From positions 129,778-193,777 of the forward strand of contig JACQVQ010000008.1 of the NCBI GenBank assembly GCA_016209685.1: a DNA stretch of 64,000 bases, given 5' to 3'. Below the pieces are notes generated by a model. That model was given only the letters and a program-made list of their open reading frames with translations, was not told where the DNA came from and ran no database searches. Source of the DNA: Planctomycetota bacterium (GTDB lineage Bacteria; Planctomycetota; Brocadiia; Brocadiales; Bathyanammoxibiaceae). Positions 5,276 to 44,099 of this stretch are shown here, in pieces; positions within the stretch are counted from its first letter, which is position 1, and each line of letters starts with the position of its first letter. The translations under genes and the position numbers were made by a program.

Positions 5276-6013
5276 CTATATTTTCTCCTCCACCTCTGGC
5301 CTCCTGAGATAGAGGGGTTGGAGTTGGAAGGGGTCGCTAATCTCGTCCTTCTCGTAGAGTTGAACCCCCAACCTGGCCACGACCCTTGCCCTTGCCGTCC
5401 CCAGTCCACCATCTTTAATTATAATCCCATCCACGTGAAAGAGTTCCTTGTAAGGGGGTACACCATCTCCAAAGATTAGGACGGGTCTTGGGAGGAGGGG
5501 TAGCAGGGAATGGGGCTCAATGGCCATGCAGTCGGTCTGTCTCTGCCATACGCCATTTACTGGTCTGTAAATACAGGCATAGACCGCCCTCCTCTTGGCA
5601 TCCAGGATTGGGCAGATGGGTGTATCACCGGGGGTAACGTTCTCCGCCAGGACGTCCAGTGTGGGTACTGCTACCAGGGGTTTCCTTAGTACATAGGCCA
5701 GGGTCTTGGCACACGTTATCCCTACCCTGAGACCGGTAAAGGAACCTGGCCCGTGGCTTACTGCAATAAGGTCGGTATCCTCTGGCCGCCAGCCCAGGTC
5801 CCTGAAGATTTCCTCTATGGAAGGGAGTAGTGCCTGGCCGTGTCTCTTGACGCCAGGCCCACCTGGGCCTGCCCTTGAGCGGAGCGAAGGGGTAGATACC
5901 GCCCCCCTCTCAAAAGACCTCTCCCCCAGGGTGGTAAGGCCCCCCCCAACGCTACCCTCGCACACGGCCACACTACCCACCATTCCAGAGGTCTCTATAG
6001 CTACCACCCTCAA
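5276..6013 (-). CDS. tsaB: tRNA threonylcarbamoyladenosine (t6A) biosynthesis protein TsaB, carrying a repeat-derived in-frame insertion
   Basis: MRVVAIETSG...AVSHGPGSFTGLRVGI motifs with a TTG start. The segment VSTPSLRSRAGPGGPG (about 5851-5900) is encoded by a repeat module also present at 43796-43845. Confidence 0.85.
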   Translation of the reverse strand: MRVVAIETSGMVGSVAVCEGSVGGGLTTLGERSFERGAVSTPSLRSRAGPGGPGVKRHGQALLPSIEEIFRDLGWRPEDTDLIAVSHGPGSFTGLRVGITCAKTLAYVLRKPLVAVPTLDVLAENVTPGDTPICPILDAKRRAVYACIYRPVNGVWQRQTDCMAIEPHSLLPLLPRPVLIFGDGVPPYKELFHVDGIIIKDGGLGTARARVVARLGVQLYEKDEISDPFQLQPLYLRRPEVEEKI

Positions 6014-6149
6014 GTGTATACCTCCTAAAGGGATTGTAGACAGAAGATTGGAAATTGGAAATTTTAAATTTTAAAATTTCCAATCTTCAATTTCTAATTA
6101 TTCTACTCCCTACTCCCTACTCCCTAGTCTTTACCCCCTTACAATTTAC

Positions 6150-6178
6150 TTGACACAGGGGTTGGGTTTCCATAATAA
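6150..6178 (+). promoter_or_regulatory. Sigma70-like promoter TTGACA-N17-TAATAA upstream of the histidine kinase
   Basis: Sequence read directly: ttgacacaggggttgggtttccataataa. Confidence 0.4.
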
Positions 6179-6290
6179 TAAATTTATAATTTCTGTGCAC
6201 ATACCAGTTTGCCGCCTGGCCTTGTAACAGCTTGTAATAGTTAAGGTATAGCTGGCGAATCAATATTTTCCTCCTGAGAGGGGTAGTCTG

Positions 6291-8012
6291 GTGAATCCAT
6301 CAAGAGACCTTTTCCAAGAAGAACTTATAGAGCGACTCTACTGGTTTATCCGCTTGAGGTGGTTTGCGGTGGCCGGGGTGCTTGGGGTAGTGTGGGTTGC
6401 TTATGATTGGGGGATTGTGGACTCCCCCACCCCGTTTGTTGTTATTTCTTTAATCCTATTGGTCTTAAACGTCCTTTTTTCCATCCATGCAGACCGTGCC
6501 AAGGAACATCCACAGTGGGCAACTATTAATGCCAGGGTACAGATTATATGTGACCTGTTGGGTCTCCTAGCGCTCCTCCACTTCGCAGGGGGCGCAGAGA
6601 ACCCCTTCCTGTTCTATTTTGTCTTCCATACCATACTGGCCAGCATCCTGTTAGAGCGTAGAGAGAGCTACTTCTTTGCCTTCACGACCATACTACTATT
6701 TGGGGTGCTCGTGTCTCTGGAATATACGGGGGTTCTACCCCACCATCCTCTTTTAAAATATAAAAATCCTTTTGTGAGTCTGGCTGGCCCGGCGTGGTGG
6801 AAGGAACCTGTTTATCTGACGGGCATACTATTTGTGTTTGCTACCACGGTGCTTTTTTCCACCTACTTTACCGTCTCCGTGGCTACGAAGCTCAGGGAGC
6901 GGAGCCGCAGGCTGAAGGCCCTGCAGGAAGAACTCCTGAGGACGGAGAAGGATAAGTGGAAGGCCATAATTGAATGCATGAAGGAGGGGGTCATCTACGT
7001 GGATAATGGAGGAAAGATAGACTTTTATAACGCCTCCGCCGCAGACGTTAAGGAGTTAACCCTCTCTGCATGTTATCCTGCCTATAGTCATGAGGCCCTT
7101 GGGGAGCAGGTGGAAGACCCCTCCAGTTCCAACAGGATACTCCAGGCAGGGGGAAGGGTGTACGAGAGTACCTGTTCCCCGATAAGAGATTCCGAGGGCA
7201 AGCATCTGGGTACGGTGCTGGTGAATCGTGACATAACGGAGCGGAGGGAGATGGAAAAGAGGCTCATGCACCAGGAAAAGATGACGGTTATTGGTAAACT
7301 GGCCGCAGGGATAGCCCATGAACTGAATAACCCCCTTGGGGTCATCTCCATGTTCACTCAAATGGCCCTTAAGAAGGTCCCAAGCGATAATCCCCTGCAG
7401 GAGTACCTGGATACTATAAAGAGGAACACAGACGTATGCAAGAAGGTTATCCAGAGCCTCCTTTCCTATGCCAGGATGGTGCCCGTCCATCCCAGGGATA
7501 TAAACCTTAACGACTGCGTAACGGACGTCCTATTTATGTGCCGTCCCTTAGTGGAGAAGCAGGGGATAAGACTGGAGACCGAGCTTTACAAGGGGCTTCC
7601 CCTCTTTAAGGGAGACCCTGACCTCCTTCGGCAGGTGTTTATGAACATAGTAGTTAATGCTATCCAGGCACTGGAGGAAGGCGGCAGGTTAAGGGTAGCC
7701 TCTGATGTCCTCCAAGAAGATAGTACCCTGGAAGCCGTGAGACTGGTCTTTGAGGACAATGGCCCGGGGATAGCCCCTGAGCATATGGCCAGGCTCTTTG
7801 AGCCCTTCTTTACTACGAAGCCAGAGGGCGCGGGGACCGGGCTGGGACTTTCCACCTGTAAGAACATTGTGGAGAGGCACGGTGGTTTCATGCAGGTGGA
7901 GAGTGAGGTGGGCAAGGGTAGCCGCTTTACGGTGGTCTTGCCCGTTAAGGGAGAATTTGCCAGGGAAGGGGATTCTATGGTAAGGGCTGAAAGTCTCTGG
8001 AGTTGGAAATAG
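6291..8012 (+). CDS. Membrane sensor histidine kinase (multi-TM, PAS, HisKA, HATPase)
   Basis: H-box AAGIAHELNNPLG, N-box NIVVNAIQA, G-boxes EDNGPGI and GTGLGLS, and about 6 N-terminal TM helices. Confidence 0.88.
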   Translation: MNPSRDLFQEELIERLYWFIRLRWFAVAGVLGVVWVAYDWGIVDSPTPFVVISLILLVLNVLFSIHADRAKEHPQWATINARVQIICDLLGLLALLHFAGGAENPFLFYFVFHTILASILLERRESYFFAFTTILLFGVLVSLEYTGVLPHHPLLKYKNPFVSLAGPAWWKEPVYLTGILFVFATTVLFSTYFTVSVATKLRERSRRLKALQEELLRTEKDKWKAIIECMKEGVIYVDNGGKIDFYNASAADVKELTLSACYPAYSHEALGEQVEDPSSSNRILQAGGRVYESTCSPIRDSEGKHLGTVLVNRDITERREMEKRLMHQEKMTVIGKLAAGIAHELNNPLGVISMFTQMALKKVPSDNPLQEYLDTIKRNTDVCKKVIQSLLSYARMVPVHPRDINLNDCVTDVLFMCRPLVEKQGIRLETELYKGLPLFKGDPDLLRQVFMNIVVNAIQALEEGGRLRVASDVLQEDSTLEAVRLVFEDNGPGIAPEHMARLFEPFFTTKPEGAGTGLGLSTCKNIVERHGGFMQVESEVGKGSRFTVVLPVKGEFAREGDSMVRAESLWSWK

Positions 8013-8084
8013 TGGCGTGCGAATAGTGCCTGAGGTACCTGCCCGGAGTAGGGGGTAGGCCCTGCACCACCCTTGTACCACAAG

Positions 8085-8164
8085 GGTACAGGGCAAGGGT
8101 GTAGGACAAAGCCCTGTACCTAATTATTGGTACGGGGCAAGGGTGCAGGGTAAAGCCCTGTACC
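8085..8164. repeat. Two tandem copies of a hairpin unit (GGTACAGGGC-N16-GCCCTGTACC) between the kinase and regulator genes
   Basis: 8085-8120 has a perfect 10-bp stem. 8129-8164 is the same unit with one G/T mismatch. A partial third unit follows. Confidence 0.8.
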
Positions 8165-8201
8165 TGATTGGTACAGGGGAGTAGGGTGTAGGGAGAAGAG
8201 G

Positions 8202-9614
8202 ATGTACAACCCTTCTATTTTCGTAGTGGATGATGATCCAGATATGGTGAAAGGCCTCGTCCTTGTGCTGAGGGAGATAGGGGAGGTAGGTACTGCCCCT
8301 ACGGCGGAAGAGGCCCTGGAGTATATAAAGAGAAACCCGGTGGACGTACTGGTAACAGACGTCCGCATGCCGGGGATTGGTGGAATCTCCCTCCTGGAAA
8401 AGGTAAAGGAGTTTCGTCCCAAGATAGAGGTTATAGTCCTTACGGCGTATGGTTCTATAGAGTCTGCCATAGATGCCATGAAGAAGGGGGCCTATCATTA
8501 CGTTACGAAGCCATTTAATAATGATGAGCTATTGATAGTGGTACAGAGGGCCCTCCAGGATAAGCGCTTCCATGAGGAGTTAGAATATCTCAGGGAGAAG
8601 GTGAACAAGGCCCATGTCTTTGAGAATATCATTGGGCGTGACTGGAAGATACAGGAAATCTTTGAGACCATCAAGAAGGTCTCGCCCTCTAAAGTACCCA
8701 TACTCATCCAGGGGGAGAGCGGTACCGGCAAGGAGCTTATTGCCAGGGCCATACACCAGCACAGCCCCCGCTCCAAGAACCGCTTCCTTGGGATTAATAC
8801 CGCCGCCTTACCAGAGAACCTGCTGGAGGCCGAACTCTTTGGATACAAGAAGGGGGCATTTACCGGGGCAGATTACGACAAAAAAGGCCTCTTAGTCCAG
8901 GCCACACAGGGGACTTTCTTCCTGGATGAGATAGGTAGCATGTCCCTGGCCTTCCAGAGTAAGCTACTGCGGGTGATACAGGAGATGGAGGTTATCCCTG
9001 TGGGTGCTACCGAGCCGTTAAAGATAGACGTCCGTTTTATCTCTGCAACCCACACCGACCTGGAGAAGGCCGTTAAAGACGGCGCGTTCAGGGAGGACCT
9101 CTACTACAGACTCAACGTGGTGAGGATTAACGTCCCCCCACTGAGGGAGAGGAAAGAGGATATACCCCTCCTGGCAGGTCATTTCCTGGAGAAATGGGCA
9201 GAAGGGGAAGAAAAGAAGGGTCTTACCCCAGGCGCCCTCAGGCGTTTAATGGAGTATGACTGGCCAGGTAACGTCAGGGAACTGGAGAACGTTATCCAGA
9301 GGGCCATGCTAGTTGCAGAAGGAGTGGATATACAGCCTTCAGACATCCTGCTCAGGCAGGAACCGCTCCCATGGTTAGTAGAGGCCGAGGGTTATAGCAG
9401 TGTCACTTACGATAAGGCTAAGGAGGAGGTCTTCCGCCACTTCCAGCGAGAATACTTTACCAACCTCCTCAAGAGGTGTAACGGTAATATTACCCTTGCG
9501 GCCGAAAAGAGCGGTATAACCAGGACTGCCTTGCACCGCATCATAAAGAAACTGAACCTTTCCGAAGAAGTCCTGACCATGCGAGACTCCCTACCTCAGG
9601 TTACCTCAAAATAG
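8202..9614 (+). CDS. Sigma54-dependent response regulator (NtrC family enhancer-binding protein)
   Basis: Receiver domain (DVLVTDVRMPG), Walker A GESGTGKE, GAFTGA loop (KKGAFTGA) and a C-terminal HTH. Confidence 0.93.
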   Translation: MYNPSIFVVDDDPDMVKGLVLVLREIGEVGTAPTAEEALEYIKRNPVDVLVTDVRMPGIGGISLLEKVKEFRPKIEVIVLTAYGSIESAIDAMKKGAYHYVTKPFNNDELLIVVQRALQDKRFHEELEYLREKVNKAHVFENIIGRDWKIQEIFETIKKVSPSKVPILIQGESGTGKELIARAIHQHSPRSKNRFLGINTAALPENLLEAELFGYKKGAFTGADYDKKGLLVQATQGTFFLDEIGSMSLAFQSKLLRVIQEMEVIPVGATEPLKIDVRFISATHTDLEKAVKDGAFREDLYYRLNVVRINVPPLRERKEDIPLLAGHFLEKWAEGEEKKGLTPGALRRLMEYDWPGNVRELENVIQRAMLVAEGVDIQPSDILLRQEPLPWLVEAEGYSSVTYDKAKEEVFRHFQREYFTNLLKRCNGNITLAAEKSGITRTALHRIIKKLNLSEEVLTMRDSLPQVTSK

Positions 9615-9861
9615 AAATACACATTTATGATTATTCCAGCCGCACAGTGGCTGGACTCCACACAGAACGCACACTCTAGTACACAGGCATGTATACTAGA
9701 GTATACCCACCCAGGTCTTTTATTATTAAGCACTTACACCTGTCGCCCCACGGCTTGCCAACGGGGTTGTAACAGGGCCGTCCTCATTTGCACTCACAGA
9801 AGTTGTACCAACCCCTTTACTCTCAAGAAGTTAAGAAAAGGCTTGAGGCATGGTTACTAAA

Positions 9862-9877
9862 TGGTATGTCAATTGCT
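9862..9877 (+). promoter_or_regulatory. Sigma54 (-24/-12) promoter TGGTATGTCAATTGCT
   Basis: GG (9863-9864), N10, then GC (9875-9876), matching TGGCAC-N5-TTGC at 9 of the 10 specified positions (only the C>T change in the -24 hexamer). Lies about 50 nt upstream of the 9928 ORF and downstream of a sigma54 activator gene. Confidence 0.6.
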
Positions 9878-9927
9878 ACCGTGTCTAGGGCGAGGTGGAA
9901 AACTTATATATATTTGGGTGAGATTGC

Positions 9928-10374
9928 ATGGGGGAAAAGATATTAGTGTTGGATAGTGACAGGGATCACCAGGAGAGGATTAAGTCCCTATTGAACAAGG
10001 CAGGTTACGAGACCATGACCGTGGAGGATAGATTTTCTGGACTCCAGGCCCTCAGGGAAGGTGGCAGGGATTCTTGCCTCAGGCGGGTGGGATCAGCCGA
10101 ATCGGCCACTCTCAACAGGGGAGGTTTTTCTGCAGTACTGATGAGAGAAGAGGCCAACGGCACAATCAGTGTCCATGACACGCTCCAGGATATAAAGGCC
10201 ATCTCCCCGGAGATGCCAGTGGTCGTAAGTGCTGATTCCTGGACGCCCCAGTCTCTTCAATATTGTACCGAGGTCGGGGCCTTCTTCTGTATGGATGGGG
10301 AGGCCGAAGGCGACCTCCTTGTGCAGGTGTTAAGCAAGGCGATTGAAGAATATAAACTGTCCTCAAAGTTGTAG
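9928..10374 (+). CDS. Receiver-domain-like protein lacking an obvious phospho-acceptor Asp (pseudo-receiver), with a repeat-derived insertion
   Basis: KILVLDSDRDHQERI...AGYETMTV resembles a CheY-like fold. An LMREE segment sits where DLVLLD is expected. DNA at 10066-10105 matches the GATTCTT-GCCTCAGGCGGG-...GAATC hairpin module. Confidence 0.55.
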   Translation: MGEKILVLDSDRDHQERIKSLLNKAGYETMTVEDRFSGLQALREGGRDSCLRRVGSAESATLNRGGFSAVLMREEANGTISVHDTLQDIKAISPEMPVVVSADSWTPQSLQYCTEVGAFFCMDGEAEGDLLVQVLSKAIEEYKLSSKL

Positions 10375-10398
10375 GGGCAATTCACTAGTTGCCCCTGC
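10371..10398. repeat. GTAG-headed REP-like hairpin (GTAGGGGCAA...TTGCCCCTGC)
   Basis: 7-bp stem at 10374-10380 / 10389-10395. The TAG stop of the 9928 ORF is the TAG of the GTAG head. Confidence 0.8.
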
Positions 10399-10420
10399 TT
10401 AGGTAAAAGGAGAGGGAGTT

Positions 10421-11983
10421 ATGGGATATGCGAGATGGGCAGTCGTCTTTCTGATTAGTTTAGGGTTAATAGCCCTCAGCCATACCCCTGTTTTTGCTAA
10501 GGGAGATGCAGGTGCAGGGAAGGGGGTCTTTGAAAAGAGGTGTCAGGGCTGTCACGGAGAAAAGGGAGATGGCAAGGGTCTAGCCTCCGTCTTCTTGTAC
10601 CCCAAACCTGCAGATTTTACGAGCGGCAAGTTCAAACTCCGCTCCACCCCATCCGGAGAGATGCCCACCGATGACGACCTCTTTAAGACCGTTGCTGATG
10701 GTGTCCAGGGGAGCGCCATGCCCTCCTTTGCCTATATCGCAGACGATGAGCGCTGGAACGTCATACAACACATAAAGACCCTCGCATTATATTTTGATGA
10801 GGAAGAGGGAAAGACCTACAATCTCTTTGAACTCAGGGGAGCCCCACACCCGTTAACCGTCGCCCCCGAACCGCCCATGGCCGCCGAGACCCTTGCAAAG
10901 GCGAAGGCCGTTTATGAGCAGGAAAAGCTGGGATGCGTAAAGTGCCACGGCAGGCTTGGGAAAGGGGACGGCCCATCGGCTCAGGAGCAGGTGGACGACT
11001 GGGGCAGGCCCATAAAGGTGAGAGATTTTACCACAGGCGTATTCAAGGGTGGTAATACCAACAGAGACGTTTATTTGAGGTTTGCCACCGGGATGAGCGG
11101 CACCCCAATGCCTGCCTTCTCCGGTGAACAGCTTTCGGATGCGGACCGCTGGTCATTAGTCCAATACGTCCAGTCCCTGAAGAACCCGGACGTAAGGTTG
11201 GCTACCCCACCGGCCGACGCCACCATAGTGGCCACCCAGACTAACGAGGATATCCCGGACGATAACCCCGAGGCTACGGTCTGGCAGTCAGCCAAGGAAT
11301 ACGAGATACCACTTAACAGGCTCTGGCAGCCAGAGATTCTACCCATGCACGTACGGGTCCGCGCCCTCTACAACGGCAAGGATGTGGCCATACACCTGGA
11401 GTGGGACGACGCTACCCAGAACATGGGCTATTCCCAACCGCAGACCTTTAGAGACGGCGCAGCCGTACAGTTCTCCCCCAGCGGTGAGTTTCCCTTTATA
11501 GGGATGGGTAATGGCAAGACCATGACAGGGCTGGAGATTCCTGTCAACATCTGGCACTGGAAGGGAGACTGGCAGGCAGATGCTGGCACCTATACCGACA
11601 TAAAGCACGTCTACCCGAACATGCACGTGGATACCTATTATTTCCCCAAGGAGGTACAGGATAAGACTTACCTAGCTGGTCGTGCGGCAGGCAACTTGTT
11701 TTCCAGCGACCACCGTCCCTCCGTTGTAGAAGACCTGAATGCCGTAGGTTTTGGGAGTCTAGAGTCCCAGCCTGTCAGCTCGCAGGGTGTCCAGGGGAGA
11801 GGCGACTGGTCAGATAACAAGTGGCAGGTGGTCTTAAGGCGTCCTCTGGAGTCTCAGGAGACCAGGGACGTAAAGTTCTCAAAGGGTGCTACCATCCCCG
11901 TATCCTTTGCCGTATGGGATGGTGCCCGTCAGGACAGGGACGGTATAAAGTTTGTATCTACCTGGTTTAGATTAAAAATGTAG
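10421..11983 (+). CDS. Secreted diheme cytochrome c fused to an NxrC/EbdC-like (DMSO reductase family type II gamma, heme b) domain
   Basis: Signal peptide, CQGCH and CVKCH motifs in the N-terminal half. The C-terminal half (WQS..YEIPL...HLEWDD...GAAVQF...FAVWDG) resembles the ethylbenzene dehydrogenase gamma / NxrC fold. The gene sits directly upstream of nxrA-like. Confidence 0.7.
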   Translation: MGYARWAVVFLISLGLIALSHTPVFAKGDAGAGKGVFEKRCQGCHGEKGDGKGLASVFLYPKPADFTSGKFKLRSTPSGEMPTDDDLFKTVADGVQGSAMPSFAYIADDERWNVIQHIKTLALYFDEEEGKTYNLFELRGAPHPLTVAPEPPMAAETLAKAKAVYEQEKLGCVKCHGRLGKGDGPSAQEQVDDWGRPIKVRDFTTGVFKGGNTNRDVYLRFATGMSGTPMPAFSGEQLSDADRWSLVQYVQSLKNPDVRLATPPADATIVATQTNEDIPDDNPEATVWQSAKEYEIPLNRLWQPEILPMHVRVRALYNGKDVAIHLEWDDATQNMGYSQPQTFRDGAAVQFSPSGEFPFIGMGNGKTMTGLEIPVNIWHWKGDWQADAGTYTDIKHVYPNMHVDTYYFPKEVQDKTYLAGRAAGNLFSSDHRPSVVEDLNAVGFGSLESQPVSSQGVQGRGDWSDNKWQVVLRRPLESQETRDVKFSKGATIPVSFAVWDGARQDRDGIKFVSTWFRLKM

Positions 11984-15429: not shown

Positions 15430-15458
15430 GTAGGGGCGACCCGGCGGGTCGCCCCTAC
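15430..15458. repeat. REP-like hairpin GTAGGGGCGACCCGGCGGGTCGCCCCTAC
   Basis: Near-perfect palindrome with GTAG/CTAC heads, intercistronic between nxrA and nxrB. Confidence 0.85.
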
Positions 15459-18963: not shown

Positions 18964-19020
18964 AAATTTGGGTTCAAGGGTTCAATCCACCTCAGGCGGA
19001 AAAGGTTTAAGGTAAAGTCC

Positions 19021-22860: not shown

Positions 22861-22901
22861 GTAGGGGCATCCGCCGTAGGGGCGAACGGCCGTTCGCCCC
22901 T
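22861..22901. repeat. Double GTAG REP-like element ending the long operon
   Basis: GTAGGGGCATCCGCC followed by GTAGGGGCGAACGGCCGTTCGCCCCT (22-nt perfect palindrome at 22879-22900). Confidence 0.8.
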
Positions 22902-23676: not shown

Positions 23677-23735
23677 GATTTGTTGAAAATCCGCCTCAGG
23701 CGGGCTACAGTGATTCTGCACCCGGAGGGAAACCG

Positions 23736-24542: not shown

Positions 24543-24762
24543 TCCGCCTGCGGCGGATAAAGAATTATCCAGCCCGTTTTGCGTCTTCACCGAGGTTCTG
24601 CCCGCTTAAGGACTGCAACGAAGACGCCTGTAGGGCTGGCTTGAAGGGCCTTCTGTAAAGGAGGCCTTTTTTGTTTCCAGGGGTTACCGTAACAGTAGAC
24701 AGAATATAGAACTGGGGCTCTGTCCCTAGCTAACTCACACCATAAAAGTTCAGGATTAACAG

Positions 24763-25802: not shown

Positions 25803-27602
25803 ATGATTCAATCTCAGTCGCTATCAATATTGAAGACGGGTGCAAATGTTTTTTTGACTGGTGAGCCCGGGTCAGGCAAGACGCATACGATCAACGAGTA
25901 TGTAGCGTATTTGCGGGCGCGAGGTATAGAGCCGGCAATCACGGCCTCAACGGGCATCTCCGCAACGCACATCGGCGGGATGACCATTCATTCGTGGAGC
26001 GGTATAGGAATTAAAACGAAATTGGACAAAGGCGATCTTGATAAAATCTCATCCAATCCATACATAGTAAATCGCATCAATCGCACCAAAGTCCTTATCA
26101 TAGATGAAGTGTCCATGCTTCCTCCTGAGACCCTCTCCATGATCGATGCTATTTGTAGCAAAATCAAACAGAGTTCAGGGCCGTTCGGGGGTATTCAAGT
26201 CGTCCTGGTCGGCGACTTTTTCCAATTGCCGCCGATTGTAAAAACAGGAGTGGGGAACGACTCGCAAACAATGTTCATTGAAGAGTTGCCGGCCCGTTTC
26301 GTTTACGACTCTCTTGCGTGGGGACGGGCAAACTTGGTCGTCTGCTATCTCACCGAGCAGTACCGGCAGGACGACAGCGATTTTCTTACTTTGCTCTCAG
26401 CAATTCGGCGCAACGCCTTCGGTGAAGACCACTTGTGCCACATTAAAAGCAGAAGAATTGGTCATCGTGCCGCACCGAATGGCGCACCGAAACTCTTTTC
26501 GCATAATGTAGATGTGGACCGTGTCAATGACGGAATACTCGCTAATCTTCCTGGCGAGTCAAAAGTATTTACCATGTCTTCGCAAGGTCCGGACGTGCTC
26601 GCCTCCGCACTTAAGAGAGGATGCCTTTCGCCAGAGACGCTTTACCTCAAAGTCGGAGCGGCCGTGATGTTCACAAAAAATAATCCGAAAGAAGGATTCG
26701 TGAATGGCACGCTTGGTGCGATTGAAGAATTTGATAAGCACAGTGGCTATCCAATCGTGAAGACACGGAGCGGAAGACGGATTGAGGTTGAGCCGATGGA
26801 CTGGGCAGTGGAAGAGAATGGAAAAATTCGGGCGCAGATTACGCAATTGCCACTTCGTCTTGCCTGGGCAATCACTGTGCATAAGAGCCAGGGGATGAGT
26901 TTGGACGAAGCGGTGATGGATTTAAGCAATGTCTTTGAATTCGGGCAAGGGTATGTCGCACTCTCGCGCGTCAGGCGGCTTTCGGGTCTGTATCTTCTTG
27001 GCTGGAATGAGCGTGCGTTTCAGGTGCACCCCGAAGTATCGGAAAAGGATGCGGAGTTCCGCACTCAGTCGGAGCAGACGGCGCGCACGTTCAGCAAGGT
27101 TGCGGGAGACGAGATTACAGCAATGCACGAGCGGTTCATTCACCTGTGCGGGGGGGAAATTATCCCAGAAAGCCGCGTTAGTGCGACGATAGCGTCTCGC
27201 CCTCTACACACGGCCCACGAGGACGGAAACACCCGAGGCGAGCGGCGCTGGGAACGCACCCTTGCCCTTATTCGGTCTGGAAAGACGATCGCTGAGGTTG
27301 CGAAGATGCGCGGCCGGACTGAAGGAACAATCCTGGAACATCTGGAGGCGCTTCGGGCACTCAATAAACTATCGGTACAAGATATTGCGCATCTAGCGCG
27401 CGGGTCTGAGGAGGCAATCGCCAAAATCCATAGGGCGTTTTGCGAACTCGGCACTAATAAACTCTCGCCTATTTTTAAAAAACTTGGCGGCGCATATTCA
27501 TACGACAAGTTGCGAATAGCCCGACTAATGCTCAACGAACAATTCCCACAGGAAACTTCTGTGTCATCTGGTTTTGAGAAAACAAGAGAAAGAGACCTCT
27601 GA
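25803..27602 (+). CDS. PIF1/RecD-family ATP-dependent DNA helicase with a C-terminal HTH-like extension
   Basis: Walker A GEPGSGKTH, LIIDEVSM, GDFFQLPPI, TVHKSQGMS. Arg codons are mostly CGN, unlike the neighbouring genes (AGR). The last codons and the stop lie inside a MITE. Confidence 0.85.
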   Translation: MIQSQSLSILKTGANVFLTGEPGSGKTHTINEYVAYLRARGIEPAITASTGISATHIGGMTIHSWSGIGIKTKLDKGDLDKISSNPYIVNRINRTKVLIIDEVSMLPPETLSMIDAICSKIKQSSGPFGGIQVVLVGDFFQLPPIVKTGVGNDSQTMFIEELPARFVYDSLAWGRANLVVCYLTEQYRQDDSDFLTLLSAIRRNAFGEDHLCHIKSRRIGHRAAPNGAPKLFSHNVDVDRVNDGILANLPGESKVFTMSSQGPDVLASALKRGCLSPETLYLKVGAAVMFTKNNPKEGFVNGTLGAIEEFDKHSGYPIVKTRSGRRIEVEPMDWAVEENGKIRAQITQLPLRLAWAITVHKSQGMSLDEAVMDLSNVFEFGQGYVALSRVRRLSGLYLLGWNERAFQVHPEVSEKDAEFRTQSEQTARTFSKVAGDEITAMHERFIHLCGGEIIPESRVSATIASRPLHTAHEDGNTRGERRWERTLALIRSGKTIAEVAKMRGRTEGTILEHLEALRALNKLSVQDIAHLARGSEEAIAKIHRAFCELGTNKLSPIFKKLGGAYSYDKLRIARLMLNEQFPQETSVSSGFEKTRERDL

Positions 27603-27722
27603 AAAAGTCACTCCAACAGCATGTGTCATTCTGAGCGAAGCGAAGAATCTGGTCGTTTAGGAGATTCTTCGGTCGCTTCGCTCCCTCAGAATGACATGTG
27701 AGCAGAGTTTTTCAGAGGTCTC
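27592..27722. mobile_element. MITE, 131-bp copy, TSD AGAAA
   Basis: Perfect 15-nt TIR GAGACCTCTGAAAAA / TTTTTCAGAGGTCTC. AGAAA flanks it at 27587-27591 and 27723-27727. Confidence 0.9.
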
Positions 27723-27806
27723 AGAAAAACATTCAAATGCCTACTAATTTAAAATGGGGACACATCCCCTATTTTCTTATACTATTTTAATTATCTCGCC
27801 AGTACG

Positions 27807-28328: not shown

Positions 28329-28520
28329 CCATGAACCAGAAGCGGTTCATGGCAGTCCCTGAACCGCTTCTGGTTTAGGGCAGGCCCTGAACCGTCCCTT
28401 CGCTCCGCTCTAGGGCAGGTCTGGTTCAGGGCAGGTGAGGGTTTGCGGAAACTAGTAGTCAGAAGACAGGAGACGGAATACTAATTACTGAATTCTGACT
28501 ACCGACTACAGTCTTCTGTC
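28329..28520. repeat. Cluster of four stacked hairpin repeats
   Basis: CCATGAACC-N6-GGTTCATGG (28329-28352). CCCTGAACC..GGTTTAGGG (28357-28380). GCCCTGAACC...GGTTCAGGGC enclosing the CCCTTCGCTCCGCTCTAGGGCAGG module (28384-28432). GTAGTCAGAAGAC...GTCTTCTG (28453-28520). Confidence 0.8.
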
Positions 28521-33644: not shown

Positions 33645-33725
33645 TAAGACCCCATTGGAAATTGGAAATTGGAAATTTTAAATTTTAAAATTTTCATTTT
33701 ACAATTTACAATCTCTCAGTTTTCC

Positions 33726-34277
33726 TTACCTCAAACTCTGTAGATACGTTACAAGGGCCTCTGTCTCTTCTCTAGACAGATAGGAAAAAGGGGGCATTAC
33801 TGAGCCTTTAACCTTTCCAGCCATCCCTTCCTCCTCAGGTGTCTTTGGCCTGGGGTTCATCAGGTGATTCCTGTGCCAATCGTCCTCGTACTTTCCCCCC
33901 AGGTGGGAGAGGTCTGGCCCGGTGCGTTCTGTACCCAGGACGTGGGGGTAGTCATACTGATAGTCCCCGGGTTGGGAGACGTTCCCCAGACCCGCATCCG
34001 TCCTTATGGGCCTTACCTGCTGGGTGTGACAGTACCAGCATCCCTCCCTTACGTAAATCTGGCGTCCCAGGAGTGCCCTTTCTGAGTAGGGTACCCCCTT
34101 GTCCGTGGCAGGAATCTTTTCCATGTACGGTAGCACGGCCGTGGAGAGGAAGGCAATGATTATAAGGAGCATCGCCCCTGGTACCAGTATACCCAGGACA
34201 ATGCTCCTTTTATAATATATCCCTCCCAGGCATATAATGCTACCGGCCAGGATAAATAATATAAGGGCTGTGTACAT
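33726..34277 (-). CDS. ccoO: cbb3-type cytochrome c oxidase subunit II (monoheme)
   Basis: N-terminal TM helix; EGCWYCHTQQVRP motif. Directly follows ccoN. Confidence 0.85.
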   Translation of the reverse strand: MYTALILFILAGSIICLGGIYYKRSIVLGILVPGAMLLIIIAFLSTAVLPYMEKIPATDKGVPYSERALLGRQIYVREGCWYCHTQQVRPIRTDAGLGNVSQPGDYQYDYPHVLGTERTGPDLSHLGGKYEDDWHRNHLMNPRPKTPEEEGMAGKVKGSVMPPFSYLSREETEALVTYLQSLR

Positions 34278-37799: not shown

Positions 37800-37824
37800 G
37801 GGGTTTCTCTCCTTTACAGTAGTA

Positions 37825-37853
37825 GTAGGGGCGGGTTTTAAACCCGCCCCTAC
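37825..37853. repeat. REP-like hairpin GTAGGGGCGGGTTTTAAACCCGCCCCTAC
   Basis: Perfect palindrome with GTAG/CTAC heads, between the protoglobin and ferredoxin genes. Confidence 0.85.
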
Positions 37854-37872
37854 ATGCAGAGATTAAATACAC

Positions 37873-38583: not shown

Positions 38584-38730
38584 CTCCTTTTCAGAAATTT
38601 GTCATAGAAGGTTAAGACGGCGGACCGTCTCTCTTTTCCCGTGGTAGTAAAAAGTGGACAGTGGACGGCATGCAGGGACAAAGCCTTCTCTGTATACCGT
38701 TTGCCGTCTACTCCTCCTTGTCCTGCGGCC

Positions 38731-38913
38731 TCAAGGCATCATGACTTGAAAGAGGGCCTGTGCTGAGAGTACCCATATCGTGGCTATGCCTAGTAGGACT
38801 GTGCCTATTCCCAGACCGATTCCTGAGGCCAACGCAAGGGTCCTCCTCCGGTTCTTAGCCCTTATCAACGCTTCCACCGGCATGTCTAGGTTCCTTTTCT
38901 TTCCCCACCCCAT
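38731..38913 (-). CDS. Small single-TM membrane protein
   Basis: 60 aa with a strong RBS (AAGGAGG, 8 nt upstream of the ATG). Confidence 0.45.
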   Translation of the reverse strand: MGWGKKRNLDMPVEALIRAKNRRRTLALASGIGLGIGTVLLGIATIWVLSAQALFQVMMP

Positions 38914-38992
38914 GTCTTTGTCCTCCTTTTTAACCAGTAGTCAGAGATAAATCTTTTCCCTGGCTACTAGCTACTGACTACTGTCTACTTTT

Positions 38993-39226
38993 TTATAGTC
39001 TATCCAGTGAGTCTAAAAACTGGCGATGTTCTACCGAGTAGGTAGAAGGCTCGTAATAGGTGCCCTCCCTTGCATGGTCCAGGAGATAATTACATCTGGG
39101 ACACCTGCGGTTATGAGGCCCTTCGCTCTTAAAACTCCTACCACACATCAAACAGTCCCTCGTTTTTCTCTGGAGTTTTACCCTCTTCCTTATTATTGGT
39201 GTTAGAGTTAATTGTCTATCCACCAC
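38993..39226 (-). CDS. Small zinc-ribbon protein
   Basis: CLMCGRSF...CPRCN, preceded by AGGAGG. Confidence 0.45.
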   Translation of the reverse strand: MVDRQLTLTPIIRKRVKLQRKTRDCLMCGRSFKSEGPHNRRCPRCNYLLDHAREGTYYEPSTYSVEHRQFLDSLDRL

Positions 39227-39777
39227 ACCCTCCTTTCCAGGTCGCCCTTTACCAACAAGGTGCGGGGCTTACTGCCCAGAAGAATTTGAAATAGCGTGTT
39301 ATGTAACACCATTAAGCATACCCTGTGCCAAAAGGGCATCTTTTTCCCCATAAAGACTCTAATTTCTTAAGTTTTTTATTTTCAAGATCTTACGGGGTGG
39401 TCTGGAAGATGGGGGTCTGTAGTAATCTGTTACAAACTAGTTACACTACAAAACCTGTAGGAATATTTTCCAAAACCCATGTGGAATTGGCTAGATACCA
39501 TGAAAAATTTTCAATAGGTACTTTTCATTAGGCCTGTCTGCCTGAGATGGATCTCTCTTCCTGAGATGAACTGCTGCCGAGGTGTCCCTCGCCCTGAACC
39601 AGAACGGTTCAGGGCAGGCTACCTTCTTGCAATCCCCCGCATTATCTGATATTTTACTGAGAGGATGCACGTTTGGGGAAATCCACCTCAGGCTAAAGGG
39701 GTAATTCATGGACTGCCCCTACAAACTATTTCAGTCTTTATTCATACGCCTCTAGTGCCACCACCAAAGGAGAGTTT

Positions 39778-40794
39778 ATGAGCACCTTTGCCCCAGAGAC
39801 CGAAAGCCCCGATATTAAGGCCATAGAAAGGATTGCCGAGGGGCGGCAAAAGATAAGGGAAGAGATATCAAAGGTAATAGTGGGACAGGAGGAAGTGATA
39901 GAGCATATGCTTATCGCCCTCTTTTGTAAGGGCCACTGCCTGTTTGTGGGTGTACCGGGTCTGGCCAAGACCCTGCTGGTGAGCACCCTGGCCGAGGTGC
40001 TCCATTTGCGCTTTAGCCGTATACAATTCACACCCGACCTTATGCCGGCTGACATAACCGGTACCGACGTCCTGGAGCAGGACCATACCACAGGCAGGCG
40101 TTTCTTTAGGTTCATAAAGGGCCCCATCTTTGCCAATATCCTCCTGGCCGATGAAATCAACCGTACACCCCCAAAGACCCAGGCCGCCCTCCTCCAGTCC
40201 ATGCAGGAGTATAAGGTTACTGCCGGGGGGAATACGTATCCACTGGAACTCCCATTCCTGGTCTTCGCCACACAAAACCCCATAGAGCAGGAAGGTACCT
40301 ATCCCCTCCCCGAGGCCCAGCTGGACAGGTTTATGTTCCAGATAGACATAGACTACCCCTCCCAGGCAGAAGAGATGGAGATAGTCAGGACTACTACGGG
40401 TGCCTTCAGGCCCACGCTTACCAGGGTCTTTGGTCCAGAGGAGATTCGGGCGTTCCAGGAAATCGTCCTGAAGGTGCCTGTATCGGACCACGTCCTCTCC
40501 TACGCCGTAAGGTTAGTGAGGGCCTCAAGACCTACGGCTAAAGATGCCCCGGATTTTGTTAAGAAGTGGATAAGCTGGGGTGCAGGCCCAAGGGCCTCCC
40601 AGTACCTCATCTTAGGGGGTAAGACCAGGGCCCTCCTCCAGGGGCGCTATGCCGTTAACACGGAAGACATCCGCCGCCTCTGTCGTCCTATCCTACAGCA
40701 TAGGGTCATTACCAACTTCCATGCCGAGGCAGAGGGCATCTCCTCCAGGGAGATCATTGACAAGCTCCTGGAGACAGTGAAAGAACACGAATAA
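39778..40794 (+). CDS. MoxR-family AAA+ ATPase
   Basis: Walker A GVPGLAKT, Walker B LLADEINR. RBS AAAGGAG. Confidence 0.92.
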   Translation: MSTFAPETESPDIKAIERIAEGRQKIREEISKVIVGQEEVIEHMLIALFCKGHCLFVGVPGLAKTLLVSTLAEVLHLRFSRIQFTPDLMPADITGTDVLEQDHTTGRRFFRFIKGPIFANILLADEINRTPPKTQAALLQSMQEYKVTAGGNTYPLELPFLVFATQNPIEQEGTYPLPEAQLDRFMFQIDIDYPSQAEEMEIVRTTTGAFRPTLTRVFGPEEIRAFQEIVLKVPVSDHVLSYAVRLVRASRPTAKDAPDFVKKWISWGAGPRASQYLILGGKTRALLQGRYAVNTEDIRRLCRPILQHRVITNFHAEAEGISSREIIDKLLETVKEHE

Positions 40795-40798
40795 AATC

Positions 40799-40900
40799 GT
40801 AGGGGCAGACCTGCGTGTCTGCCCATTAGGTTATAGACACTTACGTAGCGTGCGAGTCATGCCTTAGGCAGATCCGCCTCTGGCGGACTTGCCTCGCACG
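40799..40900. repeat. REP-like hairpin plus nested hairpin containing a TCCGCCTCTGGCGGA variant
   Basis: GTAGGGGCAGACCTGCGTGTCTGCCC (40799-40826). CGTGCGAG...CTCGCACG (40849-40900) encloses the palindrome at 40873-40887. Confidence 0.75.
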
Positions 40901-40912
40901 TCCTCTGGAATA

Positions 40913-41830
40913 ATGAAGAAACCAGAAGTCAAGACCTTTGACCCAGCCACCCTAAGCAAGATATCCGACCTTAGCCTCAGGGCACGCTATGTGGTAGAGG
41001 GAACCCTTGCGGGTATACATAAGAGTCCCCACAAGGGCTCAAGCATAGAGTTCCTGGAACATAAGGAATACTCCCCTGGGGATGAGATAAAACATATAGA
41101 CTGGAAGGTGCTGGGGAGGTCAGATAAATACTATCTGAAACAGTTTGAGGATGAGACCAATCTAAGGGCCTACCTCCTCCTGGATACCAGTGGTTCCATG
41201 GGTTATGGCTCAGGGGCAATGACTAAACTAGAGTACGCTACCACCCTGGCCGCTTGCCTGTGCTACCTGTTACTTATGCAATCGGATGCCGTGGGCCTCC
41301 TCCTCTTTGGGGAAGGGGTACCAGCCTCAGGCGGATACATACCCCCGAGGGCCAAATCCAACCACCTCCAGGTACTACTGGGCGCCCTTCATGGACTCAA
41401 GGCCCAGGGGAAGTCCAGGCTTGTCCAGGTGCTGGGGGATTTTGCCGAAAGGGACCCAAGACGTTCCCTGATAGTCCTGCTCTCAGACCTGTTTGATGAC
41501 GTAAAGGAGGTATCCAAACGACTCAATCAGCTCAGACAGCGCAACAACGAGGTAGTGCTGTTCCAGATACTGGACAGCTATGAACTAGAATTCCCCTTCG
41601 GAGAGCTAACCCTGTTCCAGTCCATGGAAGATACTACCCAAGTGCTGGCCGAACCCAGGGCCATCAGGGGGGCCTATCAGGCTGAACTGGCCCGCTTCCT
41701 GGAGGAGATACGCCAGGGCTGTCTGGAGAACCAGATTGACTATTGGCTCGTTAACACCTCTACCCCCATAGACCGTGCCCTCCTCGGGTATCTAGCCACA
41801 AGGGAAAGGTTCCATCAGAGGTCCAAATAA
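40913..41830 (+). CDS. DUF58 (vWA-like) protein, MoxR partner
   Basis: HKGSSIEFLEHKEYSPGDEIKHIDWK. I use ATG 40913 because the track's TTG 40889 lies inside the hairpin repeat. Confidence 0.85.
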   Translation: MKKPEVKTFDPATLSKISDLSLRARYVVEGTLAGIHKSPHKGSSIEFLEHKEYSPGDEIKHIDWKVLGRSDKYYLKQFEDETNLRAYLLLDTSGSMGYGSGAMTKLEYATTLAACLCYLLLMQSDAVGLLLFGEGVPASGGYIPPRAKSNHLQVLLGALHGLKAQGKSRLVQVLGDFAERDPRRSLIVLLSDLFDDVKEVSKRLNQLRQRNNEVVLFQILDSYELEFPFGELTLFQSMEDTTQVLAEPRAIRGAYQAELARFLEEIRQGCLENQIDYWLVNTSTPIDRALLGYLATRERFHQRSK

Positions 41831-41896
41831 CTAGGGGGTAGGGAGTAGGGAGTAGGGAAGAAGATTGCTATCCCCTGCTCCCTACACCCTAGCCCC
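41831..41896. repeat. Inverted heptamer arrays (GGGGGTA GGGAGTA GGGAGTA GGG ... CCCCTGCTCCCTACACCCTAGCCCCT)
   Basis: Four G-runs at 41834-41857 form a canonical G4 motif, followed by a C-rich imperfect complement. Confidence 0.8.
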
Positions 41897-41906
41897 TATT
41901 TTAGCT

Positions 41907-44099
41907 ATGCATCTACTTAACCCATTATTTCTACTAGGGATACTGGGGGTCGCCCTCCCCGTCCTCATCCATCTCATGGGCAGACGCAGGGCCCCCCTGT
42001 ACCACTTTGCGGCCATAGATTTTATCCTCCGTTCCCAGAAAAGGATAGAGGCCCGTCTCAAACTCCAGCACCTCCTCCTGCTCCTCCTCAGGGCAGGAGT
42101 AATCTTCCTTATAGTCCTTGCCCTGGCCAAACCGCTACTCCAGGAAAGGGGACTAGCCCTGGCACCCATAGGGGCCTCCTCTAGCAACGTCTTTATAATT
42201 GACAACTCTTTCAGCATGAACTACCAGACTGGAGAATCCACCCTCCTGGCTCAGGCCAAGGCACGGGCCAGGGAGCTTGTCGCCAGTCTCTCGCCCTCTG
42301 ACGAGGGATACGTCCTGGCTACCCACTCCGCCTCAGGCGGACTGTCTGCCGCTGGCGGGCTAACCCCTGATAGGGCTAGACTCCTGGAGTCGTTAGAGGG
42401 CATTGTGCCCTCTTTTTACTCTACTCCGATTAACCCCTCCCTTGAGAAGGCCCTTTCACTACTTAATGGCTCAAAAAAGGAATTAAAGAGGGTCTTCCTC
42501 TTTACAGACCTGACCCAGAATAGCTGGAGAGAACCCCAAGACCTGAGCGATTCCTTTAAGAAAGCGACGGCGTTTCTCTACATAATTGATACCGCCAGGG
42601 GACAGCCCCTCTCCAACCTGGCCATCACAGCCCTGGAATCCAGTTATGATTGGACCAGAAAGGACGGTAAGGTACACCTTAAGGCCACTATCCAGAACTT
42701 CTCTGATGCACACGTGAAGGACCTCCTGGTCAGGGTTGGATGGGGTGGCAGGCCCGCTACTACCAATGGAAAAGGCACAGCCCAGGGGTTCCTGGACCTC
42801 CCACCACACTCCCAGGCGGTCAAGGAATTCTTCCTGGATGCCCCTGGAGAGGCCGTCCTCTGGGGTTGTGTAGAGATAGTGGAATCTGCTGACGGTGGAT
42901 TGGTTGCTGACAACCAGCGTTATTTCGCACTCCCTTCAGTAAAGGATATGTCGGTGCTGGTCATAGACGGTGCGCCCAGCATCTACCTTTATCAATGCGA
43001 GAGCTTTTACCTGGAGAGGGCCCTTAACCCTGCCCGACTCCATCACTCTTATATAAAACCTACGGTCATAATACCCAGGGAGATACCATCGGTGAGGTTT
43101 AAGGACTTTGACCTGGTTATCCTGGCCAACGTGGAGGAGATGCCATCTCAGAAAGTAGCAGAATTGACCAGTTACGTGAAAGAGGGGGGGAAGGTCTTAT
43201 TTAGTCTGGGCAATAATGTGCGGACAGAATATTACAATACCTCCCTGGGAGAATTAGTACCCAAACTCCGTATGGCAGTGGAGTCCCCCAAGGAATCAGG
43301 CGGGTTAAGCCTCGGCTCCCTTGATACCTCACACCCTATCTTGAGGGTCTTTGCCGGGGAGCGTTCAGCCCTGCTTGGGGCATCCAATTTTTACAAGGTC
43401 TTTCTCATTGAACCGCAGGTTACGGGGAGCGTTAGCACCGTATTAAGCTATTCCAATGGCGCCCCGGCCCTGCTGGAGATGTCGTGTGGGAAGGGGCGTT
43501 CCATGCTCTTTACTTCTACTTTTGACAGGGATTGGACTGACCTGCCGGTGAAGCCTATCTTTCTGCCTCTAATACAACAGATATGTCTGTATCTTACGGG
43601 CAATTTAATAGAGGTAGGGCCTGGGGAGGTTATCGTGGGCCAGGAGTGGGAGATGCCCCTCTCCCAGGAGGACGCCTCTATGGAGGTGTTAGACCCAGGG
43701 GGCAATCTCTTCAGCCCCTCTATAAAGAGCCATCCCTCCAGGGCCGTAGTGGTCTCACAAACTGATTATCCTGGCATCTACCGTATCAAGAAGGTGGTAT
43801 CCGCCCCTTCGCTCCGCTCAAGGGCAGGCTCAGGCGGGCCTGTCGCAGAGAGGCAGTCCCCGGTCCCCTGGGCGGTCTTCGCCGTGAACGTGGACCCAAG
43901 GGAGAGCGACCTTTCCAGGATAGACCCCGCCCAGTTGAGGTCATCCCTGGGAGAAGAGAGGGTGGGCCTGGGCCTTCCTGGGGCCGTAGGAGGGCATGAG
44001 GGTCTTGTCGCCGGTCTAAGGCTCTGGCCTATACTGCTCATTACCGCCCTGGGGCTACTGACGATGGAATCCTTCGTAGTTGGACGCAGGCCATCATGA
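41907..44099 (+). CDS. BatA-like (aerotolerance regulator N-terminal domain) large membrane protein, with repeat-derived in-frame insertions
   Basis: MHLLNPLFLLGILGVALPVLIHLMGRRR start. Contains TCCGCCTCAGGCGGA in-frame at 42327-42341 and the 50-nt module at 43796-43845 (SAPSLRSRAGSGGP). Confidence 0.75.
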   Translation: MHLLNPLFLLGILGVALPVLIHLMGRRRAPLYHFAAIDFILRSQKRIEARLKLQHLLLLLLRAGVIFLIVLALAKPLLQERGLALAPIGASSSNVFIIDNSFSMNYQTGESTLLAQAKARARELVASLSPSDEGYVLATHSASGGLSAAGGLTPDRARLLESLEGIVPSFYSTPINPSLEKALSLLNGSKKELKRVFLFTDLTQNSWREPQDLSDSFKKATAFLYIIDTARGQPLSNLAITALESSYDWTRKDGKVHLKATIQNFSDAHVKDLLVRVGWGGRPATTNGKGTAQGFLDLPPHSQAVKEFFLDAPGEAVLWGCVEIVESADGGLVADNQRYFALPSVKDMSVLVIDGAPSIYLYQCESFYLERALNPARLHHSYIKPTVIIPREIPSVRFKDFDLVILANVEEMPSQKVAELTSYVKEGGKVLFSLGNNVRTEYYNTSLGELVPKLRMAVESPKESGGLSLGSLDTSHPILRVFAGERSALLGASNFYKVFLIEPQVTGSVSTVLSYSNGAPALLEMSCGKGRSMLFTSTFDRDWTDLPVKPIFLPLIQQICLYLTGNLIEVGPGEVIVGQEWEMPLSQEDASMEVLDPGGNLFSPSIKSHPSRAVVVSQTDYPGIYRIKKVVSAPSLRSRAGSGGPVAERQSPVPWAVFAVNVDPRESDLSRIDPAQLRSSLGEERVGLGLPGAVGGHEGLVAGLRLWPILLITALGLLTMESFVVGRRPS

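Follow-up and report, generated by a model that had tools for sequence, protein, structure and literature searches.

The window analysed here, a stretch of 64,000 nucleotides from contig JACQVQ010000008.1 of an aquifer planctomycete (Planctomycetota, Brocadiales), carries a short palindromic repeat module that lies in frame within two unrelated genes, tsaB and a batA-like gene. The first host gene (5276-6013, minus strand) encodes the 245-residue dimerisation subunit of the t6A complex and is identified by TIGR03725 (1.4e-40) and PF00814; tsaB is a tRNA-modification gene which is essential in E. coli. The second host gene (41865-44099, plus strand) encodes a protein with a BatA N-terminal domain and a VWA_2 domain (PF07584, PF13519), and its true start is likely the ATG at 41907. 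These domain matches bear out the identities which an initial annotation had assigned to both hosts from the sequence. The BatA-like protein is 100% identical to that of 'Candidatus Tripitaka californicus' (P0121). Ca. Hypogeohydataceae, the family attributed to a close relative, appears in the literature on new anammox bacteria of subsurface aquifers.

Both copies of the module exist as they had been quoted, each in the sense orientation of its host and both in the same frame. At 5851-5900 (minus strand) and 43796-43845 (plus strand), the two sequences are identical at 45 of 50 positions and differ at five (90%), and in a repeat search of the window their likeness reaches 63 nt at 84%. The common frame reads VSTPSLRSRAGPGGPG in tsaB and VSAPSLRSRAGSGGPV in batA. 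While the 50-nt repeat is real, it is not the single module that had been proposed but consists of two units, an older hairpin of about 30 nt and, within the tip of that hairpin, a 24-nt core. The hairpin, a REP-like (repetitive extragenic palindromic) unit of the sequence TCCGCC-TCA-GGCGGA that is here termed hairpin A, has 15 strand-matches in the 64 kb against 0.05 expected and also occurs alone in sister lineages. The core, CCCTTCGCTCCGCTCWAGGGCAGG, is itself a small hairpin (CCCTT...AAGGG) with the loop GCGGAGC on the complementary strand. The window contains it three times, on the minus strand at 5868-5891 and on the plus strand at 28396-28419 and 43805-43828, compared with an expectation of 0.00 from 100 shuffles. 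The second of these is the intergenic copy that had been reported at 28397-28420; it is present, but one base away. The same core had also been claimed for the arms of miniature inverted-repeat transposable element (MITE)-like elements in the window. This did not hold, as the arms contain a related unit, CCCCTTCGCTCCGCTCAGGGC, which lacks the W base and the CAGG.

In tsaB, the insert (5846-5902, minus strand) comprises 19 codons, A38-K56 (AVSTPSLRSRAGPGGPGVK), in place of one codon of the empty orthologue, as delimited by protein and DNA alignments and by the predicted local distance difference test (pLDDT). It is composed of a decayed hairpin-A unit and the core (CCCTTCGCTCCGCTCAAGGGCAGG, 5868-5891, minus strand); P0003 and P0004, orthologues with the short form, lack this core. 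The batA insert (43794-43850, plus strand) also comprises 19 codons (VVSAPSLRSRAGSGGPVAE) and consists of a hairpin-A unit and the core; its site is empty in L011 (P0125) and holds a short form in L009 (P0122). According to sequence matches, the core (43805-43828, plus strand) is joined here as ATCCGC-core-CTCAGGCGG, the same junction as at many other Brocadiales loci.

Staged gain of the inserts in tsaB and batA

An alignment of 27 TsaB homologues places the extra residues between the segments ...ERG and RHGQ.... They are found only in the window protein and in P0001 and P0002 (96-97% identity), P0003 (84%), P0004 (80%), and P0005 (76%). In P0006 (81%) and in all more distant homologues, down to Scalindua, the region reads ...EKGM-RHGQ..., with P0006-P0010 being empty. 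In BatA, the site is empty in P0124-P0126, in P0130, and in more distant sequences, and this was also seen in the DNA of L011 (P0125). Accordingly, the lineage-specific insertion proposed in the initial annotation is supported by the orthologue alignments, with empty sites for both genes at the protein and at the DNA level. A homologous peptide was not found in repeat-free relatives, since deeper Brocadiales, Scalindua, and E. coli are without the segment; the E. coli alignment begins directly past the insert, in agreement with the earlier remark that its TsaB has no equivalent stretch. Misassembly had been raised as a concern, and the tsaB insert was recovered in variant forms from independent ENA, NCBI, and JGI assemblies.

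DNA alignments of tsaB resolve a series of alleles. The empty allele (L004) reads GGGAATG directly followed by AGGCATGGG. Short forms were seen in the DNA of L005 and L006, and in L006 the additional 30 nt (GTACCCGCCTCAGGCGGACCTGGCGTTAAA) are a perfect CCGCC-TCA-GGCGG hairpin. The window allele consists of the short form plus the 24-nt core, which is set in at ATC(C/T)(G/A)C-core-C(T/C)CAGG. Further growth is found in two close relatives. The P0001 allele has gained a net 33 nt more, because the 7-nt core tip GCTCCGC has been swapped for an inverted copy of a whole hairpin-A-plus-core composite, and the P0002 allele carries a second 30-nt unit, TTCGCCGTGGCGAATCCGCCTCAGGCACGA, directly 3'. A similar series exists in batA. 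The short form GGTATCCGCCTCAGGCGGGCCTGTCG is present in P0122 and P0123 (95% identity), and in the window allele the core has been added to this short form at the junction also used in tsaB. The batA gene of Tripitaka sp. YC43 has a different small hairpin, CCCTTCACTTCGTTCAGGG, in place of the core tip, a gain of 12 nt. In neighbour-joining trees of both genes, the short forms are basal to the long forms. The short forms of P0005 and P0127 fall in clades with empty neighbours, which indicates that losses or parallel gains have also happened.

In global alignments of the window genes with orthologues of 95-96% identity, the repeat units are the sole indel sites over the whole genes. For tsaB these indels are -2/+35 and +30. 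The 2.2 kb of batA contain two indels relative to P0122, namely +3 at 42335 and a clean +24 at 43805. All net length changes between these orthologues are multiples of three. When empty and filled sites were compared in both genes, there was no target-site duplication apart from an ambiguity of 1 nt, nor were there terminal inverted repeats other than the hairpin itself. At about 95% identity, repeat units are therefore the sole source of length change, and the tsaB series (empty, +30, +54, +87 nt) illustrates the growth of a protein loop by successive additions of selfish hairpin DNA. It is a clean natural example of repeats that make new peptide segments in reading frames passed by selection.

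Short inserts were also observed elsewhere in these two proteins. In other Brocadiales, TsaB has lineage-specific inserts at other positions (AVKPPGGGKA; APGYKVGASSLALG), with P0010, P0027, and P0029 among the sequences concerned, and BatA has inserts of its own (LNQNGSGP; SASAPALALASASAS; AISVSDGLA) in P0124, P0126, P0127, P0139, and P0140. To judge from these sequences, repeat-driven loop growth may be common in Brocadiales.

Reading frame, host proteins and predicted structure

The core lies in frame in about 20 other Pfam-verified genes. Many copies are found within long open reading frames in which a Pfam domain of the same frame precedes the core, follows it, or does both. In Brocadiales, the hosts comprise an MscS channel, a PMT-type glycosyltransferase, a MoxR AAA_3 ATPase, a GT2 glycosyltransferase, an M20 peptidase, a DUF4147/MOFRL glycerate kinase (two copies), a UbiE methyltransferase, and a DUF1573 protein. 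In other phyla, they comprise Ser/Thr kinases, in which the core lies inside the kinase domain or in a linker, as well as DnaE and PMT_2/TMEM260-like transferases. Among these kinases, L034 and L088 of the Dehalococcoidia contig CAZPYZ010000026.1 and the Acidobacteriota locus L025 have the in-frame core inside the kinase domain, and the former two are paralogues on one contig with the core at the same position. In the Acidobacteriota loci L030, L042, and L069, it lies in a linker behind the domain, with more than one core-derived segment in L042 and L069.

Five of the six frames of the core are free of stop codons, and all five are used across phyla. Although all three sense frames of the hairpin-A-plus-core composite are open, all six sense composites in verified genes are in the frame (V)SAPSLRSRAGSGG(P), their hosts in this VSAPSLRSRAGSGGP frame being TsaB, BatA, MscS, PMT, MoxR, and GT2. 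The chance that six of six copies share one sense frame was calculated here as about 0.004. The antisense composites likewise agree, three out of three reading PPxPALERSEGA(D/E). Together with the restriction to multiples of three, this frame preference points to inserts that undergo translation and to selection in favour of peptides that are small, flexible, and hydrophilic. The shared frame noticed in two genes is a general rule for surviving copies (6/6) rather than a coincidence. A protein-database query with the composite peptide returned 14 candidates that share words with it, none of them at E ≤ 10, so that this search was uninformative. In practical terms, the units inflate and fragment the gene calls of metagenome-assembled genomes (MAGs), in which they give rise to many spurious 'hypothetical proteins'.

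Mapping of the insert onto a structure, as had been advised, was done for TsaB. The AlphaFold2 model built on the 27-homologue alignment has a mean pLDDT of 83.4 and matches YeaZ/TsaB crystal structures with target-normalised template modelling scores of 0.80-0.84. Residues 37-55 have values below 50 and are without secondary structure; they sit between the strand 25-34 and the helix 53-73 (β3-α1). The insert is thus predicted to form a disordered loop ahead of α1 that leaves the rest of the YeaZ fold intact.

Distribution, origin and spread of the units

When one genome per GTDB species (596 Gb) was scanned for exact matches, the core was detected at 76 loci in at least six phyla, as judged by record titles: Planctomycetota (Brocadiales, Pirellulales), Chloroflexota, Acidobacteriota, Vulcanimicrobiota, Gemmatimonadota, and Coprothermobacterota. 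By our own estimate, about 0.02 matches to the 23 specified bases would be expected by chance. One contig, L045, is labelled 'Omnitrophica' (RIFCSPLOWO2_12_FULL_50_11), and its 144-nt core context (60 nt on each side) is identical to that of the Brocadiales MAG contig L014, which probably reflects a binning error in one of the two MAGs.

The flanks of the core vary by lineage, yet the left flank tends to be an inverted repeat of the right one. A flanking stem of at least 5 bp is present in 50% of 78 distinct contexts, compared to 16% for left and right flanks taken from different loci. At L018 and L076, in MITE arms from other phyla, the core is placed exactly at the tip, in the arrangement CGCTT-core-CGCTC. 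Flanks and tip position together show that the core typically caps a larger hairpin, which is variable. The hairpin-A-plus-core junction was found at 21 further loci in a metagenome scan, corresponding to about 13 distinct sites; in Brocadiales genomes and metagenomes it recurs at no fewer than 13 other sites. Judged on these comparisons, the conservation of the core across phyla and its habit of residing at hairpin tips would be accounted for by no described element, and this puzzle could lead to a new mechanism of mobilisation that targets hairpins.

Taken together, the module is best interpreted as selfish, non-autonomous palindromic DNA of the REP or Rickettsia palindromic element (RPE) type that entered two coding regions in stages, a reading to which a probability of about 0.75 is assigned. 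The allele series shows that, in a lineage ancestral to the Tripitaka clade, a hairpin-A unit of about 30 nt (GTAYCCGCC-TCA-GGCGGACCTG...) entered both tsaB and batA in frame. Subsequently, the 24-nt core was added near the hairpin tip in both genes, at ATCCGC-core-CTCAGGCGG, and in close relatives more units entered the tip of the core itself. Only lengths divisible by three, in a benign frame rich in Ser, Ala, Pro, and Gly, would have survived. The encoded peptide would be a tolerated passenger rather than a functional domain, and inserts in proteins other than TsaB presumably also occupy loops or linkers.

Several observations weigh against this reading or against parts of it. Translation of the inserts is inferred from the rule of three and the open frame. 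The genic copies, folded as single-stranded DNA (ssDNA), are no better than shuffled sequences (z = -1.6 and 0.0); the hairpin potential within the genes is hence decaying, and a functional structure in these copies was dropped as a candidate. Ten open reading frames (ORFs) beside the MITE-like elements were all ordinary genes, with no transposase among them. The bases to the left of the core form no constant target sequence, and neither hairpin A nor the core has a clear GTAG/CGTC tag. In addition, some of the events are replacements and not clean insertions.

Other explanations of the inserts themselves are met by the alleles described above. Assemblers can be misled by short repeats, so that the inserts could be chimeric artefacts, or they could be an ancestral segment lost in other lineages, for which the short forms of P0127 and P0005 among empty neighbours, requiring losses or parallel gains, might be adduced. 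Both variants are highly improbable, since independent assemblies from four sources show the insert in continuous intact ORFs, all deeper Brocadiales, Scalindua, and E. coli are without it, and its DNA belongs to a dispersed repeat family. Equally improbable is that the insert is bypassed or removed instead of being translated, like the coding gap of T4 gene 60 or the mitochondrial 'byp' elements. Its size of about 50 nt would fit, and it is a GC-rich hairpin-former inside a coding region that resembles the byps derived from GC clusters. A bypassed element, however, would be free of any constraint on length and frame. At least six independent length changes are all multiples of three (30, 24, 33, 12, 30, and 3), the frame in use is free of stops, and the preference for it (6/6) implies that the peptide is visible to selection.

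An adaptive peptide, for which the DNA repeat would merely have been the source, has likewise been considered, as a flexible linker or regulatory loop in BatA and in TsaB, where it would lie near the helix α1 of the interface with TsaD and TsaE. The short form of tsaB is kept across lineages with 76-97% protein identity, the frame preference is strong, and altered activity has been speculated on for REP-tagged repair proteins (PMC3733652). Nevertheless, such a role is improbable, because length and sequence here are hypervariable even between orthologues that are nearly identical, about ten unrelated protein families carry the same peptide at unrelated positions, the segment is disordered by prediction, and many close relatives do well without it.

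With respect to the movement of the selfish units, the likeliest route, at slightly less than even odds, is mobilisation in trans on ssDNA. The enzyme would be an HUH/Y1 transposase that recognises hairpins (RAYT or IS200/IS605 type), and it would preferentially target the ssDNA tips of hairpins that have been extruded. Transposases of these types leave no target duplication. None is left here, the units enter hairpin tips, which are single-stranded, GTAG-tagged REPs are present in the window, and the enterobacterial REPs share the tip AGCGNAGCG, all of which favours this route. As a more tentative possibility, the units may have spread without a dedicated transposase, by template switching during replication (copy-choice) or short-patch gene conversion between dispersed copies, with stalled polymerases or nuclease cuts at hairpin tips as the trigger. 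Replacements associated with microhomology fit copy-choice better than transposition. These are the exchanges at the 7-nt core tip GCTCCGC in P0001 and YC43 and at the 42327-42341 patch of batA (12 nt into 15 nt), and TCCGC in the core tip is also the left arm of hairpin A, which provides microhomology at the P0001 junction. The recurrence of one junction in many composites would allow a composite to convert a short copy, and no transposase was found among the window ORFs scanned beside repeats (n = 10). On the other hand, copy-choice leaves it unexplained why 23 of 23 specified bases are identical in at least six phyla amid flanks that vary by lineage, the flanking homology available for conversion is just about 10-13 nt, and the +24 event in batA is perfectly clean.

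More speculative, and rather unlikely, is the idea that the core and units with GAGCGNAGCGA tips represent a pan-bacterial, horizontally spreading 'nano-element' smaller than the described MITEs and REPINs. Such an element would colonise the ssDNA tips of other hairpins, including REPs, MITE arms, and itself, would thereby build fractal palindromes, and would ride in frame into essential genes. If so, near-invariance over at least six phyla would mean that the core is recognised by a trans-acting enzyme that is itself conserved.

Palindromic repeats that lie in frame within genes are already known from RPEs, intragenic REPs, and Coxiella MITEs. RPEs are palindromic selfish repeats that occur in frame in many unrelated ORFs, including housekeeping genes, where the peptides are tolerated, and also between genes (PMC3733652). 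The analogy to RPEs drawn in the initial annotation stands as a description of how the module works, in that the units lie in frame in unrelated ORFs which they leave intact (TsaB, BatA, and the approximately 20 other Pfam-verified hosts). RPEs (RPE-1 to RPE-8) are about 100-150 bp long and confined to Rickettsiales. In contrast, the units described here measure 15-30 nt and the composite 50-57 nt, the host is a planctomycete, the units are stacked in each other's tips, and the core is found in at least six phyla.

According to Di Nocera et al. 2013 (PMC3733652), intragenic GTAG/CGTC REPs occasionally lie in frame and contribute 20-30 amino acids, with dnaE and repair genes among their hosts. 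RAYT-associated enterobacterial REPs share the common tip mentioned above (PMC2817692). The present units resemble REPs, which are high-copy hairpins of 20-40 nt mostly 3' of genes and can have inner self-complementary parts in their loops; hairpin A and the core likewise occur repeatedly in the window, and both recur in related genomes. They appear to differ from REPs in showing no clear GTAG/CGTC tag and in that no RAYT gene was found among the ten ORFs adjacent to repeats. REPINs are described as vertically inherited and lineage-specific, whereas the core is nearly invariant across phyla. Coxiella MITEs insert in frame (PMC5896051), as do the Correia and ERIC families covered by a review (PMC10969869). 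Like the repeats studied here, MITEs are non-autonomous and able to extend or interrupt ORFs without destroying them, and the 130-190-nt elements of the window have terminal inverted repeats and contain the same hairpin units. The tsaB and batA inserts (24-57 nt), however, have neither terminal inverted repeats of their own nor a target-site duplication and are below the usual size of MITEs.

Among mitochondrial elements, GC clusters, double-hairpin elements, and 'byp' elements are tiny GC-rich hairpins that invade coding regions and each other. The byp elements differ in being organellar and bypassed, while the multiple-of-three rule indicates translation of the units described here. Furthermore, d(GCGNAGC) is an extraordinarily stable DNA mini-hairpin (PMC13037366), and the complementary strands of the core tip (GCGGAGC) and of the MITE units (GCGAAGC) match this motif exactly; it is known from phage origins and promoters, whereas a dispersed repeat family with this motif at its tip has not been described. 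No relevant paper with the exact strings of the core or the units was found in the literature searched, nor anything on MITEs in anammox bacteria or on Ca. Tripitaka. Within this literature, four features appear undescribed: an allelic series of units nested tip in tip in a coding region, a 24-nt core that at least six phyla have in common, a frame preference of this strictness, and the mini-hairpin tip as common denominator. For its kind, the module is unusually small, nested, and widespread.

Other repeat units of the window

Outside the composites, hairpin A is found mainly between genes. Seven of the ten solo sites are intergenic, mostly no more than 50 nt past a stop codon according to the ORF map. 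One lies 3' of tsaB (5223-5235, plus strand), and the other intergenic solo copies are at 18987-18999, 23691-23703, 24544-24556, 40874-40886, 45566-45578, and 62509-62521. Within batA, a solo unit (TCCGCCTCAGGCGGA; 42327-42341, plus strand) is read as SASGG, and here the 95%-identical orthologue has CCCCCCAC-CGGG, which is 3 nt shorter, so that 12 nt have been replaced by 15 nt. Another unit lies at 50377-50389 in a GT9 heptosyltransferase gene, where it is read as NPPQAD directly ahead of the conserved CSPC motif. A degenerate sequence at 41322-41334 in the DUF58 gene of the MoxR-DUF58-BatA operon, read as PASGG, is perhaps also a hairpin-A copy.

The third core copy is intergenic and of the T variant. 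Its core (28396-28419) occupies the loop of a larger palindrome at 28384-28432 (plus strand), GCCCTGAACCGT-core-TCTGGTTCAGGGC. The fold of its DNA has -15.4 kcal/mol (z = -2.2), and the same composite is present in L013, L014, L020, L044, and L060. The enclosing palindrome, hairpin B, also occurs without the core (GCCCTGAACC-GTGCT-GGTTCAGGGC) directly 3' of the tsaB stop codon (5245-5269, plus strand) and at 39591-39615, that is, with two coreless matches against 0 expected.

Classical GTAG-tagged REPs (GTAGGGGC...GCCCCTAC) are located directly past gene ends at 15430-15458, 37825-37853, 40799-40824, and 22861-22883; GTAGGGGC has 12 matches in the window against 3.7 expected. Their presence suggests a RAYT gene somewhere in the genome. 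This tagged family sometimes encloses hairpin A and the core (L031, L079). Hairpin A itself is often preceded by GGTA(T/A) instead of GTAG, and the core is untagged.

A MITE-like element at 4987-5177 is bounded by the terminal inverted repeats GAGACCTCTG...CAGGGGTCTC and contains a core-related unit at 5108-5142. Its relatives lie at 27592-27723, 45431-45680, 50510-50641, 51080-51211, 51779-51909, 53589-53720, and 63284-63366, and the sequence GAGCGNAGCGAAG has 13 matches in the window against 0.16 expected. These elements, 130-190 nt long, are built from units of like design, in which two complementary stem halves enclose a GAGCGNAGCGA loop. Covariation is seen in these stems (CCCT/AGGG, ATTCT/AGAAT, ATCCT/AGGAT, ATTCC/GGAAT, GTCCT/AGGAC), and the complementary strand of the unit tips reads GCGAAGC.

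In the 2.6-kb segment 51080-53719, two inverted 131-nt MITE-like copies (85% complementary) surround 2.4 kb with two 249-residue ORFs, an arrangement that resembles a composite transposon. One ORF encodes TauE and the other has no Pfam match. A transposase beside the MITE-like elements was rejected as a candidate, this segment included, the neighbouring ORFs being TauE, PEMT, GT9, a PIF1 helicase, and others. In database searches, the MITE had no blastn match among the PLSDB plasmids or the INPHARED phages, and the 24-nt core had none in IMG/VR. The MITE-arm unit GTCATYCTGAGCGNAGCGAAGRATC had more than 120 exact matches in viral contigs of IMG/VR among the matches listed, which suggests that the superfamily of hairpin repeats is very widespread and possibly carried by viruses.

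A scan of the window with Rfam 15 gave a tRNA as the sole match at gathering level, and over 4900-6100 only noise at E ≤ 10. Two further palindromic repeats were observed. The AT-rich ATTGGAAATTGGAAATTTTAAATTTTAAAATTTCCAAT lies at 6033-6098, in the divergent promoter region between tsaB and a histidine-kinase gene, and again at 33647-33726; in Rfam it gives just weak FinP-like and miRNA-like noise. Finally, a 41-nt palindromic unit, GGTACAGGGCAAGGGTGTAGGACAAAGCCCTGTACC..., is arranged as a tandem pair at 8085-8169 between the histidine-kinase gene and a response-regulator gene.

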